Shown in pieces: positions 8,816 to 63,348 of a DNA stretch of 64,000 nucleotides. The DNA comes from Macrostomum lignano. Taxonomy: Eukaryota. Position 1 is the stretch's first letter. Each line of letters begins with the position of its first letter. Location of the stretch: assembly GCA_002269645.1 (NCBI GenBank), contig NIVC01001414.1:124001-188000 (forward strand). Direction: 5' to 3'. Both the position numbers and the translations under genes were made by a program. The notes below the pieces were generated by a model. The model did no database searches. It worked only from the letters and a program-made list of their open reading frames with translations, and was not told the origin of the DNA.

Positions 8816-9671
8816 TACTCTTTCAGCTCTCCACTTTTCCCACTACTCCCTCACTCTAGTATCTTTTCTCTCCAGTCTCCTCTCTACTGTATTTTATCAG
8901 GAATGTCATTTTTTCGATTTCTCCACAGCCACTTCGACTTGTAAACAAAATAGTTGATACAGTGTTTCACCGGCACAGATTGCCTCAAATATAGGGAAAC
9001 AAATGCGGTTGATACTACTTCACCCTATCTTTGCATTGCGTTGGGCGGAGCACACGAATAAAGAGGGTGAGGTTGCTAGCGGCCTCTCTTCCCCTCTTCC
9101 CCTTTCTCCCTTTCCTGCCCAAGCAGGACTTCAACTCTCTCCCCAACCCCTCCTCACATCGCGGGCCCCTGTCTGTCGCCGCCGCCGCCTCCTCATGCCG
9201 CCGGCCGGCCGCCTTTCAACCAATCTGGTTGTTCTGGTTTCTCTCTCCGTGCCGCCGCCGCCTCCGCCGCCGAATTGTGTCTCTCAGTCCTGTGTGCGCG
9301 CGGCCGCCCCTCTGTCCCTCCTCCTCTGCCGCCTCCTCTCCCCCTCCCCTCTCTCTGCTCCTGTCAATCTCAAAAAGCGGAGCGGCGGCCTCCCCACCCC
9401 GAAAGCTCGCCAGAACGAATCAATAATAAGAATCGGCGGTACAAGTATAGTTTGCGATATTTTCTCTCTCAAAAAATCAGCTAAGTTTTAGAAGAGATTC
9501 GAAAACAAAAATACTGTCTTTTTGTTTAAGAAGAAAGGCCAAAACAGTAGCTCCATTCATCTTGTTAATTGTTTCATCTTGGTTAAAGGTAGGTAATGTG
9601 ACACTACCACTACTGTTAGTTTTCTGTGTGTTAACTGCATTTTTGTGTCCAAGATTCGTTCAGAGGGAGAT

Positions 9672-49547: not shown

Positions 49548-49935
49548 CTGCAACAGCAAAATTGCGCATCGAATTTGCAATTTTCTCAACTCCGACAACT
49601 ACGATCGCCAAGTATAATTTCAGGTCATGACAGAATTTTCACGAATGATTTAGTAAACAGAAATTCCTAATTATCCTCCCAGTTCTCCATCTGCAGCTCA
49701 ACCCACACACTCACACTGCACACCGAGGCCTTACAGCTTCCATTCTCGACTCAGATCAACCGGCACTCCATTGGCTGGGAGGCAGCCAGCCAATCACAGC
49801 TCTCGCCCATCAAGCAGTCAGCCAGAGACAAGCTCAGCTGACTGGCTCTGATTGGCTGGCCTGAGACTGCAGCTCTGGCCACCCCAGCCGAATGCTGCAA
49901 AACTTGATGGACACAGCAGCGAACTGCTCACTCAC

Positions 49936-50472
49936 CGCTCGATGTAGCTGGCCAGCTCTGAGTGGCCGCTGAGCCTCGCCAGGTCCGAGGCCGTCCGACC
50001 CTCGCGATCCTTCTTTAAGTTTTCGTGCTGTTTGCACTCATTGAATCTTCTCTGCCTGAGCAGGTGCAGCAGGTGCTTGGCGCATTTCCAGCTTCCAGTC
50101 CGCGCCGCCTCCATCAGCGGAGTAGCGCCGTTGTCGTTCCGCAGCCACTTCGTATCGAACGACAGCAGCGTCAGCAGCCGCAGGTGGTCCCACCGGGCTG
50201 CCAGGTGCGCAGCCGTGTCGCCGTTCGCGTCAGCCGCCTTGGGGTTCGCGCCCAGCTCAAATAAGTACAAGATGCACTTTTCAGTGTGCACGGGAGTCTC
50301 AGGAGCGTCGGCCACCAGCATGAGGACGGTCCAACGAGCTGCATCAGCGCTGGTGACCAGCTGGCGCGTTGCCAGCCGCCGCACCTTGTCGAAGTCACCT
50401 TGGATGACATTGTGGGCGAGATTCTGGAGATCGGCTGCTGAGTCTGCTTGGTCGCTAGGCGAGCTGGCTCTC
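49936..50472 (-). CDS. Ankyrin-repeat gene exon (about 4 ANK repeats)
   Basis: WTVLMLVA, GDTAAHLAARWDH, GATPLMEAARTGS, GRTASDLARLSGH. TTTTCTAG acceptor and CG|GTGAGT donor (phase 2/2). Confidence 0.85.
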
Positions 50473-51029
50473 CTAGAAAATTTATTCTTGGCTAGTAAAC
50501 GTAACTAAATGACAAGTAATTGCTAGTAAATGACAGCTGTGATTTAACGTGGCTTTCTCATGAAACCTTTTTGCCTGTTTGTCTGTCTTTATGTGTCTTA
50601 TATTTTAGAATATATTAATATAGATTACAACATAGATAATATATAACTTCATAAAGTTTTTTAGTTTTACCTACATGTAAATGTTCATAAAGAGACGTTT
50701 ACATCGTGCGGTTGTAACTACTTTTATAAAATTCAAAAGCTTTAAAATAAATAAATTCTTATTCCTGGTTTTTAGAAATCGGAGCTACTCAACTTACCAG
50801 GGAGTTACATTACATTACAAGATTACTTGGAAGCAGTCAGTCTAATGCGAATGCCAGATGAAATTATGTTATAGTCTCTATGAGTAACTGGCATTTTTCT
50901 TTATTTTGAGCGTTTTAGTTGCGCTTGTCGAAAGTTCCACCCTCCAAGCGAATTGAATTTTTCTCACTTATTGCGAGTGACGCAACTAACGGCACGCGCG
51001 AAGCTTATTGCCACATGGGGTTGGCTTGG

Positions 51030-51260
51030 GTCTGCATTATGGTCCAGGATGACAACGCGCCGCTACAAGTTAGCTACAGCTGCACACTCTGCGCTGGCCT
51101 TCCCGGTCCCCAGACATGAATCCCATCGAGAATGTATGGGACTTCCTAAAACGCAGCATTCGAAAAGATAATCCACCAGAATGTTGCGAAGCTGCGTCAT
51201 GCCATTTAAAACGCTTGACAGCAGCTTCCCCAGGACTTTCTGCGCCGCCTCATCCTGGGG
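51030..51260 (+). mobile_element. Tc1/mariner transposase remnant inside an ANK-gene intron
   Basis: MVQDDNAP followed, after a frameshift, by RWPSRSPDMNPIENVWDFLKRSI, the DDE_3 WPxxSPDLNPIE signature. Confidence 0.75.
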
Positions 51261-52485
51261 ATGCCCCGCAGGGTCGCCGCACTTCCTCGTACGAGGGAAT
51301 CCCGTACGCACTATTAAGCGTAGTAATTCTAATTGCATATTGCATAAAAATTGTTATGATTTTGTGGGACTGACGTTTATTATTAATTTAATCAACTTTC
51401 CCTTCCTTGCGGCGGCTTTGTTGAGTAACTTAAGGGTTGTATTGTGAGTGAGAAGTTGTCGCGTAGCGCTGGCTACCAAAAGACTGAAGGCGCTTGATCA
51501 AGTTGAGCGAAAGGTTAAATCTTGGCTGGGGTCGATCGCGTCTAATTAATAAAAATTGATGTACAGGTAGCTTGAGGCTGAAACCGAAACTGGGAGTTTG
51601 GGCCATATACAAACTACATGTAGCTTGTCGTACTCGAAAGCAAGCACTTTTATTAAATGCAGTGGGAAATAAGACGCTACAGTCGAAATACGTGAGAAAA
51701 TTCTCGCTTGGAGGGTGGAACTTTTGACTGTTGCTGAGTACAGACTTGTGAAAGTTGGAACGAATCTCTACGCCCGAACTCCCAGCAAGTTTAGTTCTAC
51801 CTGAAAATTTCGACAAATGAGTACGCATGTACACTGATAGCGTATAGAATTCTAAACTTAAAAATTAGAACATTTGGATCGGAGTTTGATAGGAAAGGCC
51901 CTTGTAAGCACTGGAATTGTGCTTACATCGAAGCGAAAAATCAACGGCCTTCTCCCGTCTCGACCGGTGCTATCCAGCCAGACCAGCTCTACACTAAAGG
52001 GCAGATAACAAAGCTGAGGTTTGAAGGCCAAGCCAGCAGCCTGCGAACGCGTGACACAGTGGACTCGCAGCAATGCTTGGGGGTGATATGGTTACCTAAC
52101 AACGGCACAGAGAAAAACTGCTCGAGCGATAACCCTGCCCCGCTCAAACTATGCGCCATTGCTCTTCATTTTGTCAACTAAACCAGTTTGCTTGCTTGAC
52201 TATAAAATACACTGTCTTGCATAATTTGCGGCAGAGAGAGATTCAGAAATGTGAGCCTCACACTCATAACAGGGCCCTTAGAGGCCAGTGCGTTAAAAAT
52301 TCTTTCTGGCTTGTATGCAGAAGATAGCAGGAAAAAAACTGTTATAGCCCTGGGTTCCTTTTTGTAGAGAAAAAGATGGGAAACTTTTACCAGCTGGTAA
52401 TTCACAACCAGACTTTATCTTACAAGCTAATATTCTCGTGCATCAGCAGATTTTATTCTGTATGGTGGTAAAGCCTTAATCTCAC

Positions 52486-52740
52486 CTCACGTGCGGTGTC
52501 TCCGCCATTGCCAGCACTGCGACCACCTCCGAGTGTCCTTTGCTCTCTGCCACATTCAGCGGAGTGGAATCCGAAAAGTTCCTCTTATCACGAGATGCAC
52601 CGTATCTGAGGAAAAGCTCAACGACTTCCGTGTTGCCAGCAGCAGCAGCCAAGTGTAGAGGCGTATTTCCCTCCAGATCCGCAGCGTCGAGATCCGCACC
52701 CAGCTGGAGCAGCAGCTCTGCACAGCTGAGATGACATTTT
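52486..52740 (-). CDS. Ankyrin-repeat gene exon (about 2 ANK repeats)
   Basis: LGADLDAADLEGNTPLHLAAAAGNTEVVELFL...DSTPLNVAESKGH. Phase 2/2 sites compatible with both neighbours. Confidence 0.88.
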
Positions 52741-53583
52741 CTAGACGGTCGCAAGCCTCCACTGGCTGCCACCATGAGGGGAGTTCTTCCCTCCCAGTCT
52801 CTCCAGTTGCAGTTCTCTTTGTTTACGGCTTTTGTAAATTCCTTCTTCCTAGCTTGGCTGATGAGGCAGTTCAGCTTCTCGGCTTCCTGAAAATTTTATG
52901 GCAAATTTTTAGATGACCATCTGTGGTTTTATTCGATCGCTTTCTCGGCAACAGAAATGTTTTCTTACCGAAATGGAATGCTCGGTCAACCCGAATTTCG
53001 CTCTGGAATTTTTTGTTTGAACCGCAATTTTAGCATCTGAAGAGTGGATGTCTGAATGCCCTTGGTGAAACCAAACTAATAAAATAAATAAAATACGCAT
53101 TTAGTTAAAATTCCTAAAATAAGGTTCTAGTTATTAGTTATCATATTTCACCCAGTGGTACTTTTATTGCATTGACACAACTGGGTGTTGCTAACTATTT
53201 CAAAACACTCGCACGAGGGCTGTAGGCACCCTGGCGAAAATGACAAGAATCGTTTCAGCAGCCCCCGCTGAGGCAGTTCTGCTCATTCCGCTGACTCCTG
53301 AGCACAGACAAGCGCGCCAATACTGTACACAGGCACGCACTCATGTACACGCTCACTCAGGGTGTACAGCGGTCCGAACTTTCTAATATTCAGGAATATA
53401 CACTCTGCGCCTTGGGGGTTCGCCCTCATGGGTTTAAACGACAACCCTCCAACCAATGATTTATGCGAAAGCTCCAAACGAATGGGCCGCGCACGTAATC
53501 GAACCGCTGAGCTGCTCTGGCCCTTGTAGGTGCAGTTTGGTTCCCAGACCTTGAGCCTGACCATTTCAGGTATTTCTACTCAC

Positions 53584-54191
53584 TGCAGAAGATGCAAGCA
53601 GATGTCTTGGTAGCCCTGCTTCCACGCAGACCAGTAGATGCTGGCGTATTTCTCAGCACCGCTGTCACGCAGAATCTCCGGCTCATGCTTCAGAACAATC
53701 TTCACCAGCTCCAGGTTTCCAGCACAAACAGCCATGGTCAGGGCAGACTGACCGGCCTTGTCAGTGAGCTGAGAGTTGGCCCCGTTGTCCAACAACATCT
53801 CTGCTACCGGAGCATTCTCCTCTTCTACTGCCAGCAGCAACGGCGTCATGCAGCTTCCATCTGCGCTGTTGATGTCTGCCCTGTGGTTTGCCAGCAAAGT
53901 GTTTAGCAGAGGAATGTTGTTGGAGAGGACGGCGCAGTGCCAGACGGAGTGCTTCCGGCTGTCCGCAGCTTGCGGATCAGCTCCTCTGCTGATGAGGATT
54001 TCGAAGCACTCGGCATGAGCCTCGGAGCCTTGAGAGAAGTCCGCGACTGACGCTGCTGCGGCACAGAGAAGGGCCGTGCGATGAGGAAACGATTCGTGTG
54101 GGTCTTGCAGTACTGACGGATCAGCTTCAAGGATTTGAGCGAGCTTTGACGCATCTCCGGTGGCTGCGAGATGATGCAGAGCTCTGGGAGT
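53584..54191 (-). CDS. Ankyrin-repeat gene exon (about 5 ANK repeats)
   Basis: The frame stays open upstream of the listed ORF to the acceptor TTTACAG|ACT: TPRALHHLAATGD...RTALLCAA...SVWHCAVLSNN...MTPLLLAVEEEN...QSALTMAV. Donor CA|GTGAGT (phase 2). Confidence 0.85.
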
Positions 54192-55429
54192 CTGTAAAGT
54201 TTATTTTGAAGCATATGTAAAAATGTAAGTGCCTTTGGCTATGACGAAATTTCTTTAAAATGAGTTGCTGAGCAATCTGTGAAAGGGCCAATCTGTGAAA
54301 GGGTCCAATTAGTTAGAAAATCTTGCAACGTCACACTTTTTTTTGCTACTTAATTAAACTTATCAATGAATCACTGTTAAGAGACAATTACAAAAAATGA
54401 AATTGCAAAACAATGTTCCAGGTGTCTGAACAGGTTCCTGTTCATATTATATTATAAACATACAAGATAAACAGCACGAGCCGCATTAAAAAATCAAGTA
54501 CCTGTGCAAGTAGGAATGCACCCAGTAAATGCAAGAGTTCTGGCCTTGTGTGGAAAGTAACCTTCTAAATATAAATCAAAAATGAAGTAACCATAAGGAG
54601 TAATACTCGTAGTTAAGGATCATGACAGTGAGTATAACTTTGCATTTAAATTTAATTTACTTGAATTCAAATTTTAATTAGAATTTAATGCAGCTACTGT
54701 AGGATTTCATAACTTGAACATCCTTCTCTACACGGAAGTTCAGACTTTCAAAGAGTACACTCGAGTACTTTCAGCATAACTTGTAGCACAAAATTCGTTA
54801 GCACAATCGTTAGCACAAAATTTTCACCGTAAAATATACCTGACTCCTTCCTCAGTATCAAACTGCAGAAAATCTTCTGATTTCCAATACAACTCTCTTT
54901 ACTCGTTAGGGTTTTCCTACAAGTATCTGACCGCCAGCAACAGAGTTTGAAATGCTAAACAGGAATATATTCATCTGTTTACTTTCGCTCTAGAGAAAGA
55001 CACAGGTGTACTCAAGAACTGAAATGTTTTGAAATTTTGACATGAAAACGTTTAGCGAGTAAAAATTTATTATAATTTTCTCGTAAAAGCTAATTATTGT
55101 ATAAGACCGTAGCAATTAAAAGTACCAAGAGGAAGGATGTTCCATGAGGGGAAGTCGACGCCCCTTTTCCTGATTTCTACATAAAATAATAGCTCGTGCA
55201 GACAGAATGCGATTTTGGGGGTAGTTTAAAATTCTGTTCTGAAAGCCTTTCATAACAACTGTAATAAAGCATTGCGCTGCTCTGTGACCACTTACATGTG
55301 CGTGAGATGCTGCATCAGCGCTCTGCTTTTGGGCTTCCTGAGCTCTGAAATGTGACGCGGAATCAAGATATGTACATCGCGTCAGCACTAACGTATGCAG
55401 ATAATTATGCACTGGAAAAACTGTCTTAC

Positions 55430-56505: not shown

Positions 56506-57339
56506 CTGTAAAGAAGGACTTGTTGAAAATCAAGGACCACTAGTTGTTCCAATATAGTCTTGTCTGGTATACGTAGTACTTCTTTATTATTTGAGCAAAG
56601 TTTCTCACAAAGGTGCCTCAATAACCAGTTTACTAGTAATAGGCTGCAAGATCTTTCCTATAAAATGGGTGCACAATGGTATCAGGGAGCAGAGAGAAAA
56701 GCGGAGAGCCAATGCATTGTTGAGGTTCGATAATAGGCTGAAAACCCTCTCTCCTGCCAACCACATGCATCTGGAGAGGAGACCCATGCAGCCGAGCCTA
56801 GCTGTAGCCGCTCGGTGTGAGGTCGCACCGTACCGCCATGACACAGCGGGAGAGAGCAGCTGCAAACGTAGTACAGCTACTGACTGCCTGTGTGTTAGAC
56901 ATTCCCAGTCCCACTTTTCTCTCTTAGCCCCCATATTGTTTCGGCGCACAATGCATTGCAGATTTGACTGATCCAGTGAGCTCACAGTCTCGATAAGCAA
57001 AAGACTGCCGTTTTGCCAGTTTAGTTTCATTTTTTCTGTCTCCAGTGTTTGCAGACTTAGTAAATAAAATAAATTAAATTGTACAAACAGTATTAAAGCT
57101 GCGTGAGGACCCTTTCTGTACATTAAAAATATCGCGATTGCAACTACTACCGCAACAATTTGGGTTTGATAAAATGCAGAAGAAGTTCTAAAAAATTATT
57201 ATAATTTAATTTCAAGCATCACTTGCATTTTTACTAGTCGTCTTGTTACAGGTAAATTTGAAATAATTTATTTGTTCTAAATTCTTGTTTATCACGTTAT
57301 GTTAGCTCTAATTCCAAAACGATAAATTAATTTGAAATA

Positions 57340-58599: not shown

Positions 58600-59684
58600 T
58601 TAGGAGCCTCTTATGAAGGATCTTTAACGCGCAGAATAAGGCATGGTAGCTGGATTTGACCGTCATCTGAACCAGCAACAACAACAAAAACAACACCAAA
58701 AACATCAAAAAACAAAAACAACAGTAAAAACATCAAAAAACAAAAACAACAGTAAAAACAACAAAAGCAGAACGATAACAACCATATCAACAATATTAAC
58801 GATGAGACCACAAAAACAGCAATAGCAGTGAGATATTTTTGCTACTCTCATTCTTTCCCTCTCCCTTCCGCTTTCTCGTCTCCCCATCATCACCTATGCT
58901 TTCCCACTCCTTCCTCATTTCAAGCAGACTCACATTCTTCAGCAGCAAGTGCAATGTTCCATGCTAAGTACATTAAGTACTTGTTAATTCCTTGTTAACA
59001 ACATTGTGTAGCAGTTTTTTGTCAGATTATGAAAAAAAGTATCTGCAGTGCAGAATTTTCTGAAATGCAAAAATCTGAAAATTTCAATTGTTTTTTATAA
59101 TTTTTGTCTAAAATTGCACTTTTATATTTGCCATAAATTTCTGTCATGGATTTCGCCATAATAACTGTTATATCTGTAACTCCAGTCAAACTTGTTCTCT
59201 GTACACAAGTAAGAGTGCTCAGCCTTTGAATAATTTTTTGTGTCAAATAGCGGGCTGTTCCTTTTGTCTATGGCTTTGACCGGGCCTTAGTGCCCTGAAA
59301 TTGTATGGGAGTTGCATCACGCTTTATGAGAGATAATTAAGCGTGCTCTACCGGCTACTTTTTATAAAATAGCCCTTATTGTATACATTTTTGTGACATA
59401 TTGGCTCAAGCGCTCGTAGTGTATATTGCAAGCATGTGCCTATTTATAAATTCATCTTTATTGCCTTAGTACTTATGCAGATTACTAAATAGAGTGTGAA
59501 TAAATATGAATAAATATGATGAATAAATATCAATATAAAGTTAATCCTAAACTCGGCATTCTAAATTTTTGTGTTGAATTTTCATTGAGTTTGACTGGCT
59601 GAGCAGAGAATAAAGCAGTGGTGACAGGAGAGAGGGGTGTCAGTGTGGGTAACTAAAAGGGCATAGAGGGAGGACTGGAAAGGC

Positions 59685-59859
59685 AGATGAGGGGAACTGG
59701 AAGGGCAAAGGGGGAACTGGAAGGGCAAAGGGGGAACTGGAAGGGCAAAGGGGGGAACTGGAAGGGCAAAGGGGGGAACTGGAAGGGCAAAGGGGGGAAC
59801 TGGAAGGGCAAAGGGGGGAACTGGAAGGGCAAAGGGGGGAACTGGAAGGGCAAAGGGGG
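59685..59859. repeat. 21-bp G-rich minisatellite (GGAACTGGAAGGGCAAAGGGG)n
   Basis: About 8 units ending exactly at the AGTAGT inverted repeat. Confidence 0.93.
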
Positions 59860-59954
59860 AGTAGTTGTAAAATATGGGGGGTGGCGTTAAATTAACCAAT
59901 CTCCAAAAATCATCATGAGTGAGCGATGCCCATCCCCCATATTTTACAACTACT
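59860..59954. repeat. Perfect 21-bp inverted repeat, AGTAGTTGTAAAATATGGGGG...CCCCCATATTTTACAACTACT (53-bp spacer)
   Basis: Arms at 59860-59880 and 59934-59954 are exact reverse complements. Confidence 0.92.
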
Positions 59955-60756
59955 AATATATAGCATACAGATCTGGAAACCACTTTTTTTTAAATTCCCT
60001 TTAGGGGGTCTGTCGACAGTTTTTAGAAAAACACAACTACCCCAGACGTCATACCAATCAATGGCGATTTGATTACCAATCGCAACGCTTCCAACACGCT
60101 ACGCGCGCTATGCTTACGTTTACAACCCCTCCTGATGTGGGGCAACTTCAAAAGTCGGTAATCAAGAGTCCCAAAGTCGTAGAACGAGGATCGCTGGAAA
60201 CACCAAATAGTAATAGTTCAGAGAATGGTTTTTATACATACCTTGCGGAACTTCAACCTCTAATCGGGAAACAGCAAAGTTACCAAGATCGTCATCGGTA
60301 TGTGGTTGAACCGCCTTCATCCACTTTTGGAGAACAAGAGCCAACTTGTAGCATGTCTCTACAAAGAAGGGATAATAATATGCCGTTCTGATCGCTATTT
60401 CTGTATGAAATTAGCAAAGCTAGCAGAGGTGTATTCGAAATTCACTTATTTGGAGAGATTCATCGGCATCTGTCAAAGATACCCGAAATCTTAGCTCAGA
60501 ACCCACAATTTTGGAATGTAGGCGCTGTAAGTATTCTAATATTCTAAGTTGCTAGGCAGTCCAACGCGTAAGTCACGCTTGGCAACTATATGTACAGCCA
60601 TGTGTTTCTATATGTATAGCAATGGCATATGTATTCCTTTATATAGGTGGAATACCGGTACGCAAGTGGCGCGTCGCGGCCGTCGCAGCTATTGCGCCTA
60701 TAGCGCTTGTCACCCAATCCCAATATCGGAATTTTTGATAATTTTTATTGTAAAAA

Positions 60757-61334
60757 ATGGTAAAATTTGGAGAAGCATTAGACCTACAATCTGCACTAAC
60801 TTCATTCTCGCACAAACTCCCTTTCACCCCCGGTCGGTATAAGGGCGAAATGCACATACCCGGTTATTATTTTGCAGGCCCCGGCACAAATTTAACGTTA
60901 AGACTAAACCCTCAGACCGATACACCGCAACCCGATAGCCTCCATATAAACCTTATAGACTGGGCGGCATATCGACACGATAAACGTTATAGGAACGCAG
61001 AAACTCTTGCTCAAAAACACAGCTGACCAACAGATGTCGCAAGAGCTAGATGCTATTCCTACAGAAGACTTGACAGTAAAAGAGCGCGTAACGCGACATA
61101 CGGTAAAAAGAATAATAAAAGCAAAAGTTAAATTTGGGCTGGGGCTTACTTTAGAAGAAGCCATAAAAAAGCACACCCCATATCGTAAACCCAAAGTATT
61201 TAGAAAATTTGTGCACCATTACAAAGACGAAATATGGCACGCTGATTTAGTTATTATGCCGCCAGAACGTGGCTATAAATATATTTTAACAATTCTGGAC
61301 GGCTTCACGCGTTTTGCCTGGGTTGTTCCTTTAA
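60757..61334 (+). mobile_element. Polinton/Maverick (adintovirus-type) PLA2-like domain plus retroviral-type integrase, frameshifted and truncated
   Basis: HIPGYYFAGPGT...NLIDWAAYRHDKRY is a parvovirus-VP1-type PLA2 (Ca loop plus HD). A frameshift near 61020 leads to ADQQM...KDEIWHADLVIM...YKYILTILDGFTRFAWVVPL (Polinton-like rve start). Cut at TTAA 61331. Confidence 0.85.
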
Positions 61335-61655
61335 CAGTAACCCGACGGATGGCCTGCATAGCAGGCCATGGCCGCAGGCCATGGCCGGAGCCTTTCCACT
61401 CAAAACGGTTCTTTATGCCGTGCAGTCTGTGGGTAAATTGATGTCAACTCTAGCTTACTATTCCAGACGGCTAATTCTGCTGAGCCGAACAATTGACCAT
61501 ATATATCTTTGTGGCACTGCAGTTAAGGACTGATGACCTGCATGGCAGGCCATCCGCTAATTCAGCAGAAGCAAAGACACGGTAGTAGGCGGTGGTTCAG
61601 ATAATTTTATTTATGGAAGAGAACAAACCGTCATTAAAGTGAATTTTTTTACTTA
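61331..61655. mobile_element. piggyBac-like terminal segment, copy 1
   Basis: Begins TTAA-CAGTAACCCGACGGATGGCCT, has internal palindromes and is near-identical to 63119-63348 apart from an insertion of about 100 bp. Confidence 0.55.
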
Positions 61656-63118: not shown

Positions 63119-63348
63119 TTAACAGTAACCCGACGGATGGCCTAGCTTACTATTCCAGACGGCTAATTCTGCTGAGCCGAACGATTGACCATATATATCT
63201 GTGTGGCACTGCAGTTGAGGACTGATGACCTGCATGGCAGGCCATCCGCAATTCAGCAGAAGCAAAGACACGGTATTACGCTCTGGTTCAGATATTTATA
63301 TTTATGAAAGAGAACAGAACCGTTATTAAAGTGAATATTTTTTACTTT
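63119..63348. mobile_element. piggyBac-like terminal segment, copy 2 (probable 3' end of the transposase-bearing element)
   Basis: Same TTAA-CAGTAACCCGACGG start; lies downstream of the minus-strand piggyBac transposase remnant. Confidence 0.55.

Follow-up and report, generated by a model that had tools for sequence, protein, structure and literature searches.

The window, a 64,000-nucleotide stretch of contig NIVC01001414.1 from Macrostomum lignano, contains at positions 60757-61333 the frameshifted and truncated remnant of a gene in which a parvovirus-type phospholipase A2 (PLA2) is joined to an integrase (rve). The motifs listed in the original prediction (PGYYFAGPGT, DWAAYRHDKRY, and, across one frameshift, ADQQM, followed by the start of an rve domain) were located as claimed. 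An ATG is present at 60757, and the first two motifs share one frame, the stop codon of which lies at 61024-61026. The second frame carries ADQQM...IWHADLVI...ILDGFTRFAWVVPL, and one +1 frameshift is located at approximately 61015-61025. The 5′ gene piece (60757-61023, forward strand) contains the calcium loop YFAGPG and the catalytic residues HD..Y, and matches the Pfam family PF08398 (Phospholip_A2_4) with an E-value of 1.4e-4 and 22.5 bits (cut-off 23.9). The 3′ piece (61022-61333, forward strand) comprises the end of PLA2, a G-x-G linker (KFGLG), and the truncated start of the rve core, which matches PF00665 (E-value 4.8e-5, 24 bits, cut-off 32.6) at model positions 4-42 only. Both pieces stay under the Pfam cut-offs because they are short. 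At approximately 61333 the gene is cut by an unrelated dispersed repeat outside the Polinton (61331-61654, forward strand), which leaves the DDE triad with its first acidic residue only. The repeat has 14 matches in the host assembly, mostly 86-93% identical, and a second copy is found near 63119.

Upstream of the gene, a terminal hairpin (AGTAGT...ACTACT, 59861-59954), whose 25-nt arms are 96% complementary, presumably represents the outer end of the element; the other element end has been lost. The same kind of palindromic end is present at three further contigs (C234, C716, and C1051). The sub-terminal region (59955-60756) has two matches in the host assembly, the window itself and C234, and its positions 60452-60538 are 86% similar to the corresponding part of the C234 copy. 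A 128-codon open frame within it (60005-60391) matched no Pfam family. No other Polinton genes were found within the 64-kb window. From the hairpin approximately 800 bp upstream and the single gene, it follows that the relic is one 1.5-kb element end, and the stretch is almost certainly a dead end-piece of a Polinton/Maverick. Taken on its own, this copy, the anatomy and damage of which are directly observed, is ordinary debris; its worth is that of an empty-site control, since an unoccupied GGNCC at the Gly-Pro codons of the calcium loop (60877-60881, forward strand) contains the intron position of its relatives (between 60879 and 60880), and that of a pointer to the fusion.

Some other features were observed around the relic. 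A G-rich minisatellite with units of 20-21 nt (59668-59860) adjoins the terminal hairpin. Two ORFs of 422 aa (at 57331) and 366 aa (at 55426) have weak Pfam matches only, under the cut-off, and several short ORFs resembling ankyrin repeats, as judged by eye, lie on the minus strand at 49932-54200. A second integrase fragment is present on the same contig, approximately 1.5 kb past the window end (L037:1469-1858).

Whole elements and the PLA2-integrase fusion

A search of the host assembly (764 Mb) with the PLA2 piece gave at least 150 scored matches (of 599 candidates), and one with the integrase piece gave 202. The C234 copy is 86% DNA-identical to the window copy and is open in one frame across the frameshift point. 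Because of these relatives, a chance origin of the window motifs is excluded. Unbroken copies consist of one frame of 431-452 aa; the PLA2 cut-off was passed by both of the two scanned and the rve cut-off by one of them, and copies of 452 aa exceed both cut-offs (PLA2, E-value 1.3e-8; rve, E-value 7.1e-10). The proposed parvovirus type of the PLA2 is thereby borne out, with PF08398 recovered in the relic and in unbroken copies.

Full-length relatives, which had been anticipated elsewhere in the genome, were found as elements of 17-23 kb. Among the eight contigs mapped, both terminal inverted repeats (TIRs, 300-592 bp) were observed in five, delimiting elements of 17.5-23.2 kb that start with AGTAGT or GTAGT, and exact 6-bp target site duplications (TSDs) flank three of these five. 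The TIRs open with an imperfect palindrome of 75-115 nt (e.g., L102:2229 and L114:8665), so that each end could fold as a hairpin.

With regard to gene content, the relatives encode, outside the window, a double-jelly-roll capsid protein (PF21738, E-value 1.8e-13) and an A32-like packaging ATPase (PF04665, E-value 6.9e-6). These two genes, together with the TIRs and the fused frames, support the proposed remnant of Polinton/adintovirus type. The fuller gene set expected of complete copies was recovered in part: capsid and ATPase were confirmed, the polymerase was recognized by motif pattern only, and the protease-like ORF was named by eye. A large ORF in C1051 contains motifs A, B, and C according to PolB-type patterns, and an ORF in C781 did not match these patterns. 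Searches of Pfam and PHROGs with the large ORFs of the relatives gave no polymerase match and an endonuclease VII insert only, a PolB search of phage records gave no match, and no polymerase was found in the C234 stretches searched. The protease-like ORF (144 aa) lies at the expected place and has no library match; its H/D/Q/C residues, assigned by eye, are presumably those of an adenain-like cysteine protease. The C234 copy stands in order with pX-like, capsid, ATPase, minor-capsid-like, and protease-like pieces, and fibre-like ORFs are further neighbours of the relatives. One of the latter (L036:1535-3208) contains an F5/8 type C (discoidin) domain (E-value 4.9e-10). After the capsid region of one Polinton, weak matches to the histone 3′ stem-loop, under the cut-off, were observed at L035:8518-8563 and 9279-9324.

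It might be argued that the window piece derives from a cellular secreted PLA2, a Gypsy/Ginger integrase, or the chance joining of two fragments, as each piece alone remains under its Pfam cut-off and among solved structures, retroviral and Ty1 integrases come closest. However, fused frames occur in many copies of the host genome, among the best 150 database representatives (clusters) 16 span both domains, and Polinton genes lie beside the closest copy, C234. Best matches to cellular secreted PLA2 or Gypsy/Ginger integrases with no Polinton neighbours, named in the original prediction as evidence against it, were not what was found. Such an origin is scarcely credible, and it is refuted by unbroken copies that pass the PLA2 and rve cut-offs, by whole elements with TIRs, and by the neighbours at C234.

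Sixty Wnt matches were found in the assembly, some of them on element-bearing contigs (C67, C506, C952, and C393). Since Wnt genes share contigs with the elements, these sit in the chromosomes of an animal host. The exon tree, computed without four intron-free rows (L003-L005 and L060) and with a bootstrap that had not settled, contains three fully supported branches, and the window copy groups with C234 and C301. A second Polinton-like family (C716; L029:6701-8221 and L031:8705-10000) has PLA2 and integrase as separate, divergent genes, and its GGNCC count is 6 versus 11.5 expected.

Since the relatives are Polintons with TIRs, 6-bp TSDs, and capsid, ATPase, and polymerase-like genes, they represent a known class, and the "undescribed virus-like system" of the original prediction is not supported: Polintons/adintoviruses with a parvovirus-type PLA2 have already been published, as is evident from the accessible portions of PMC8502044, PMC3671162, PMC4642659, and PMC5803895. 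Compared on genes alone with the animal Polinton/Maverick of the Alpha adintovirus type, which has PLA2X (accessible portions of PMC8502044, PMC3671162, and PMC5803895), the relatives have in common the rve integrase, PolB-type motifs (in one of two copies tested), A32-like ATPase, double-jelly-roll capsid, parvovirus-type PLA2, TIRs, 6-bp TSD, and a length of 17-23 kb. They differ from what those portions describe in that the fusion partner of PLA2 is the integrase and not a pX-like tail (here an ORF of its own), the ends carry a hairpin of 75-115 nt, and many copies contain group I introns, the window copy being a dead piece of 1.5 kb.

The fusion itself is directly observed as a single frame in the relatives. 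The H, D, and Y residues of PLA2 are invariant in the fusion alignment, and the 10 fused database representatives that were checked all come from metagenomic or read assemblies. When the PLA2-integrase alignment was compared with viral_contigs, 85 pattern stretches were obtained and no relative was confirmed. Such fusions were assumed in the original prediction to be described already. In the accessible portions of PMC8502044, PMC3671162, PMC4642659, and PMC5803895, PLA2 is instead a separate gene (PLA2X or CAP), and it is also separate in those of 10.64898/2026.06.19.733378. The words "fused" and "fusion" do not appear in the main text of PMC8502044 (supplements outside scope), and no report of a PLA2-integrase fusion was found in openly readable text, supplements and subscription papers being outside the scope of the search.

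The parvovirus VP1-unique PLA2 (PF08398) has the same calcium-loop GPG and catalytic HD..Y, whereas the putative enzyme encoded here would be joined to an integrase and not to a capsid protein. If PLA2 were a particle-borne entry enzyme, as in parvoviruses, the fusion would bring the integrase into the particle too. That the fusion serves this co-packaging is a tentative proposal, the odds for which are slightly less than even. The Gly of the G-x-G linker is nearly invariant, and the linker is a poor fit to the adenovirus protease consensus used for comparison; its cleavage by the protease of the element is a weak idea.

Group I introns in the calcium loop

In 50 of the 74 classified copies, the PLA2 is broken between the Gly and Pro of the calcium loop by an insert at one GGNCC site. 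The survey covered 83 loci, which comprise 24 without an insert (the window included), 24 with a short type 1 insert, nine with short type 2, 17 with a long insert, and nine unclassified; these loci were hand-picked, and the counts are thus not genome frequencies. Seven loci had been dropped before the survey (four duplicates, two of the second family, and one fragment). None of the window-like copies (L001-L006) contains an insert.

Several lines of evidence identify the inserts, with near certainty, as group I introns. All 28 scored candidates exceed the cut-off of RF00028, each lying approximately 600 nt or less from a PLA2/integrase match, and the matching inserts score 64-91 bits. Among the scanned inserts, Rfam matches were obtained for four of five long, three of nine short type 1, and none of seven type 2. 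GGT precedes all 50 inserts, so that the 5′ exon ends in the U of a U-G pair, the P1 partner being assigned by eye. In the core, which covaries, 91% of the paired cells can pair compared with 80.5% after shuffling, two-sided changes affect 22 of 39 pairs (a level not reached in any of 500 shuffles, with slid controls at 38-50%), and the G-C pair of the G-binding site is conserved in 22 of 23 rows; the structure behind these figures came from the Rfam alignment of one row, was partly hand-set, and was applied to rows that are related. Compensating pair changes between intron classes occur in P3, P4, P6a, and P7. The type-2 introns, which Rfam misses, pair in P3, P6a, and P7; a shift by one column brings P4 into pairing as well. 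These introns (L019:802-1129 and eight other loci) have the P5 extension of type 1 and a different P3/P4/P6/P7 core, and the combination of a shared P5 with a different core suggests core swapping between intron classes.

Group I introns usually end in G, as do 16 of the 17 long ones here, and the short type 1 introns (n = 24) end in A in 20 cases, in G in three, and in another base in one. Introns with a terminal A are not without precedent; a literature search retrieved no example. In the type-2 introns (n = 9), the 3′ splice site is uncertain and no CC follows.

On sequence evidence, the introns are predicted to splice, or to have spliced, in vivo, which we consider quite probable. Contigs of eight runs, none of which is on record as RNA, showed no joint when compared with one short-intron copy. 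Comparison of the same contigs with one long-intron copy gave a joint in one run, where the middle letters are those of intron-free DNA alleles and do not represent ligated exons. The introns might alternatively be inert cargo from an earlier protist host or virus that do not splice in the animal, the intron-bearing elements multiplying with integrase made from intron-free copies or from an internal start. Such a scheme would accommodate the many introns that end in A and the lack of a spliced joint in the contigs of these non-RNA runs, and protist Polinton-like viruses are known to carry group I introns (accessible portions of PMC12220804). It is nevertheless quite improbable, given the compensatory changes in the four helices among classes, the constraint on both exons of intron-bearing copies (pN/pS 0.08-0.38, well below 1 on either side of the intron, in a set without copies containing stops, duplicates, or shifts), and the occurrence of introns in elements whose TIRs are 99-100% identical and whose TSDs are exact.

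The intron state is scattered across the exon tree: the long-intron copies do not form one clade (p-AU 9e-7), and the same applies to short type 2 (p-AU 0.022). Ordinary recombination between copies is another possible source of mosaic trees and low pN/pS. Outside the host, one of the 17 loci scanned for Rfam introns was positive and 16 were without; in the positive one, the JGI metagenome contig L131, a gene of 35% identity is interrupted at the identical codon by the same intron with its ORF.

According to the accessible portions of PMC10964413, nuclear group I introns are confined to rRNA genes and are almost absent from animals. Such introns receive only passing mention in the accessible portions of 10.1101/2023.08.22.554363, PMC11296320, and 10.64898/2026.10.13.758929, and openly readable text yielded no account of animal Polintons with group I introns, supplements and subscription papers being outside scope. 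The protist Polinton-like viruses of Rhodomonas, Paulinella, and Desmodesmus, as far as the accessible portions of PMC12220804 go, are alike in that a protein gene of the integrated element contains RF00028 introns of approximately 300-380 nt. By comparison, the present introns are found in an animal host, are inserted in the PLA2 calcium loop, have a nuclease ORF in or beside them, show three core variants at one site, and are accompanied by element-wide loss of that site.

Nuclease genes and the loss of GGNCC

An Eco47II-like nuclease ORF (PF09553, E-value 5e-6) was detected inside 16 of the 17 long introns; an ORF of at least 200 aa is present in only eight of the 17. A free-standing nuclease-like ORF immediately precedes the gene in each of the 33 short-intron copies; it is Eco47II-like in 11 and endonuclease-VII/HNH-like in 22. 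The latter type (L020:89-660 and 21 other short-intron loci) matches phrog_1035 with an E-value of 3e-8. The alignment-based predicted model of the intron nuclease (pLDDT 88.7) resembles EcoO109I (E-value 2.4e-4, TM 0.66), a fold assignment made by Foldseek alone; a single-sequence model with a pLDDT of 43.9 was not used. Eco47II homologues have been linked to GGNCC in the accessible portion of PMC10305163.

The word GGNCC is nearly absent from the invaded branches and not from the branch of the relic. In eight elements, it occurs seven times versus 147.0 expected, an approximately twentyfold depletion, and three of the seven are empty insertion sites; the control word CCNGG occurs 116 times versus 147 expected in the same elements. 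In two intron-free elements, the insertion site is the sole GGNCC, and the C110 element, the upstream ORF of which is endonuclease-VII/HNH-like, also has one GGNCC only. Host DNA contains 110 of 202 and 142 of 219 expected occurrences (0.54-0.65 of expectation), CCNGG behaving alike. In the window branch, C234 has 14 GGNCC versus 10.3 expected, i.e., no loss, a count made over 7.7 kb of a broken element with a coding minisatellite omitted. The relic (59861-61332) has one, at the calcium loop, versus 3.6 expected, which alone is not significant. Because it is intron-free and its closest relative lacks GGNCC loss, the window branch serves as a natural control, consisting of C234 and the relic.

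The best explanation, to which we assign a probability of about two in three, is that the window holds a dead intron-free Polinton end, and that in two sister branches the fusion gene was invaded at GGNCC by introns that are likely spliced and likely homing. Splicing and cutting are the parts that we infer. The Gly-Pro of the calcium loop would force GGN-CC, making this the GGNCC that an element cannot easily lose. The nuclease, which probably cuts at the predicted site GGNCC and drives homing, would cut intron-free copies at the calcium loop, and repair from an intron-bearing copy would convert them. As the intron splits the site, the carrier is proposed to be protected. Selection would then strip all other GGNCC from exposed lineages, and the branch of the window would have been unexposed, or have departed before exposure, and decayed since. 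Against this explanation stand the 22 short-intron copies with an endonuclease-VII/HNH-like ORF in place of the Eco47II-like one, since elements of this kind lack GGNCC as well, and the site itself: with 5 bp it falls well short of the classical homing sites, and as it is common in host DNA, an active nuclease should be toxic in the nucleus.

Another possibility is that the nuclease is no homing enzyme and serves as a weapon between elements, cutting GGNCC-containing DNA of co-infecting or neighbouring origin, with carriers purging GGNCC and the intron being a self-protection patch that is moved by ordinary recombination only. The restriction-enzyme fold and the element-wide site loss do resemble restriction avoidance, the Eco47II-like ORF is free-standing upstream in the 11 short-intron copies, distant relatives of the nuclease occur in viral contigs outside Rfam introns, and the intron was found at only one of the 17 outside loci. 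We nevertheless regard this as unlikely, since the ORF lies within the intron in nearly all long copies and in L131, several database homologues continue into translated intron core, and the intron state is scattered over the exon tree. The use of the nuclease against other elements and its role in homing are not mutually exclusive.

Phage mobile group I introns and collaborative homing, as presented in the accessible portions of PMC11296320, similarly involve free-standing and intron-embedded nucleases at the same intron site. What differs here is that the nuclease is restriction-like, of the Eco47II family and the EcoO109I fold, and that its predicted site spans 5 bp; the accessible portions of PMC10964413 give GIY-YIG, LAGLIDADG, His-Cys, and HNH as the only homing families of eukaryotes. 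The element class is known; the family, with its fused PLA2-integrase, restriction-like nuclease, and ribozyme intron that is likely mobile, is a novel form within it. It would be an even bet to generalize further, namely that a mobile group I intron can function in the nuclear genome of animals, that a restriction-derived nuclease with a 5-bp site drives it into the one position that the entry enzyme of a Polinton is unable to recode and has purged this site from entire element lineages, with the window branch as the uninvaded reference, and that the fusion is the mark of an undescribed, widespread lineage of Polintons to which this happened more than once.

If the preferred explanation is true, introns in protein genes of animal-integrated elements would break both the rRNA-only and the almost-no-animals statements in the accessible portions of PMC10964413, and would make it possible to test if animal cells allow these ribozymes to splice out of mRNA. 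In addition, a short-site homing nuclease of restriction type and the lineage-wide loss of its site would form a measurable record of mobile-element conflict. What the window adds is the contrast between branches (intron-free, no GGNCC loss), which rests on one broken element (C234) plus the relic.

With regard to cutting, the far TIR of C1101 (L118:1890-2017) contains a duplicate of PLA2 codons 1-43 that breaks off immediately ahead of the GGNCC site, and contigs of three runs have loose ends at this position, with two different sequences. The break and the loose ends are possibly a scar of cutting.
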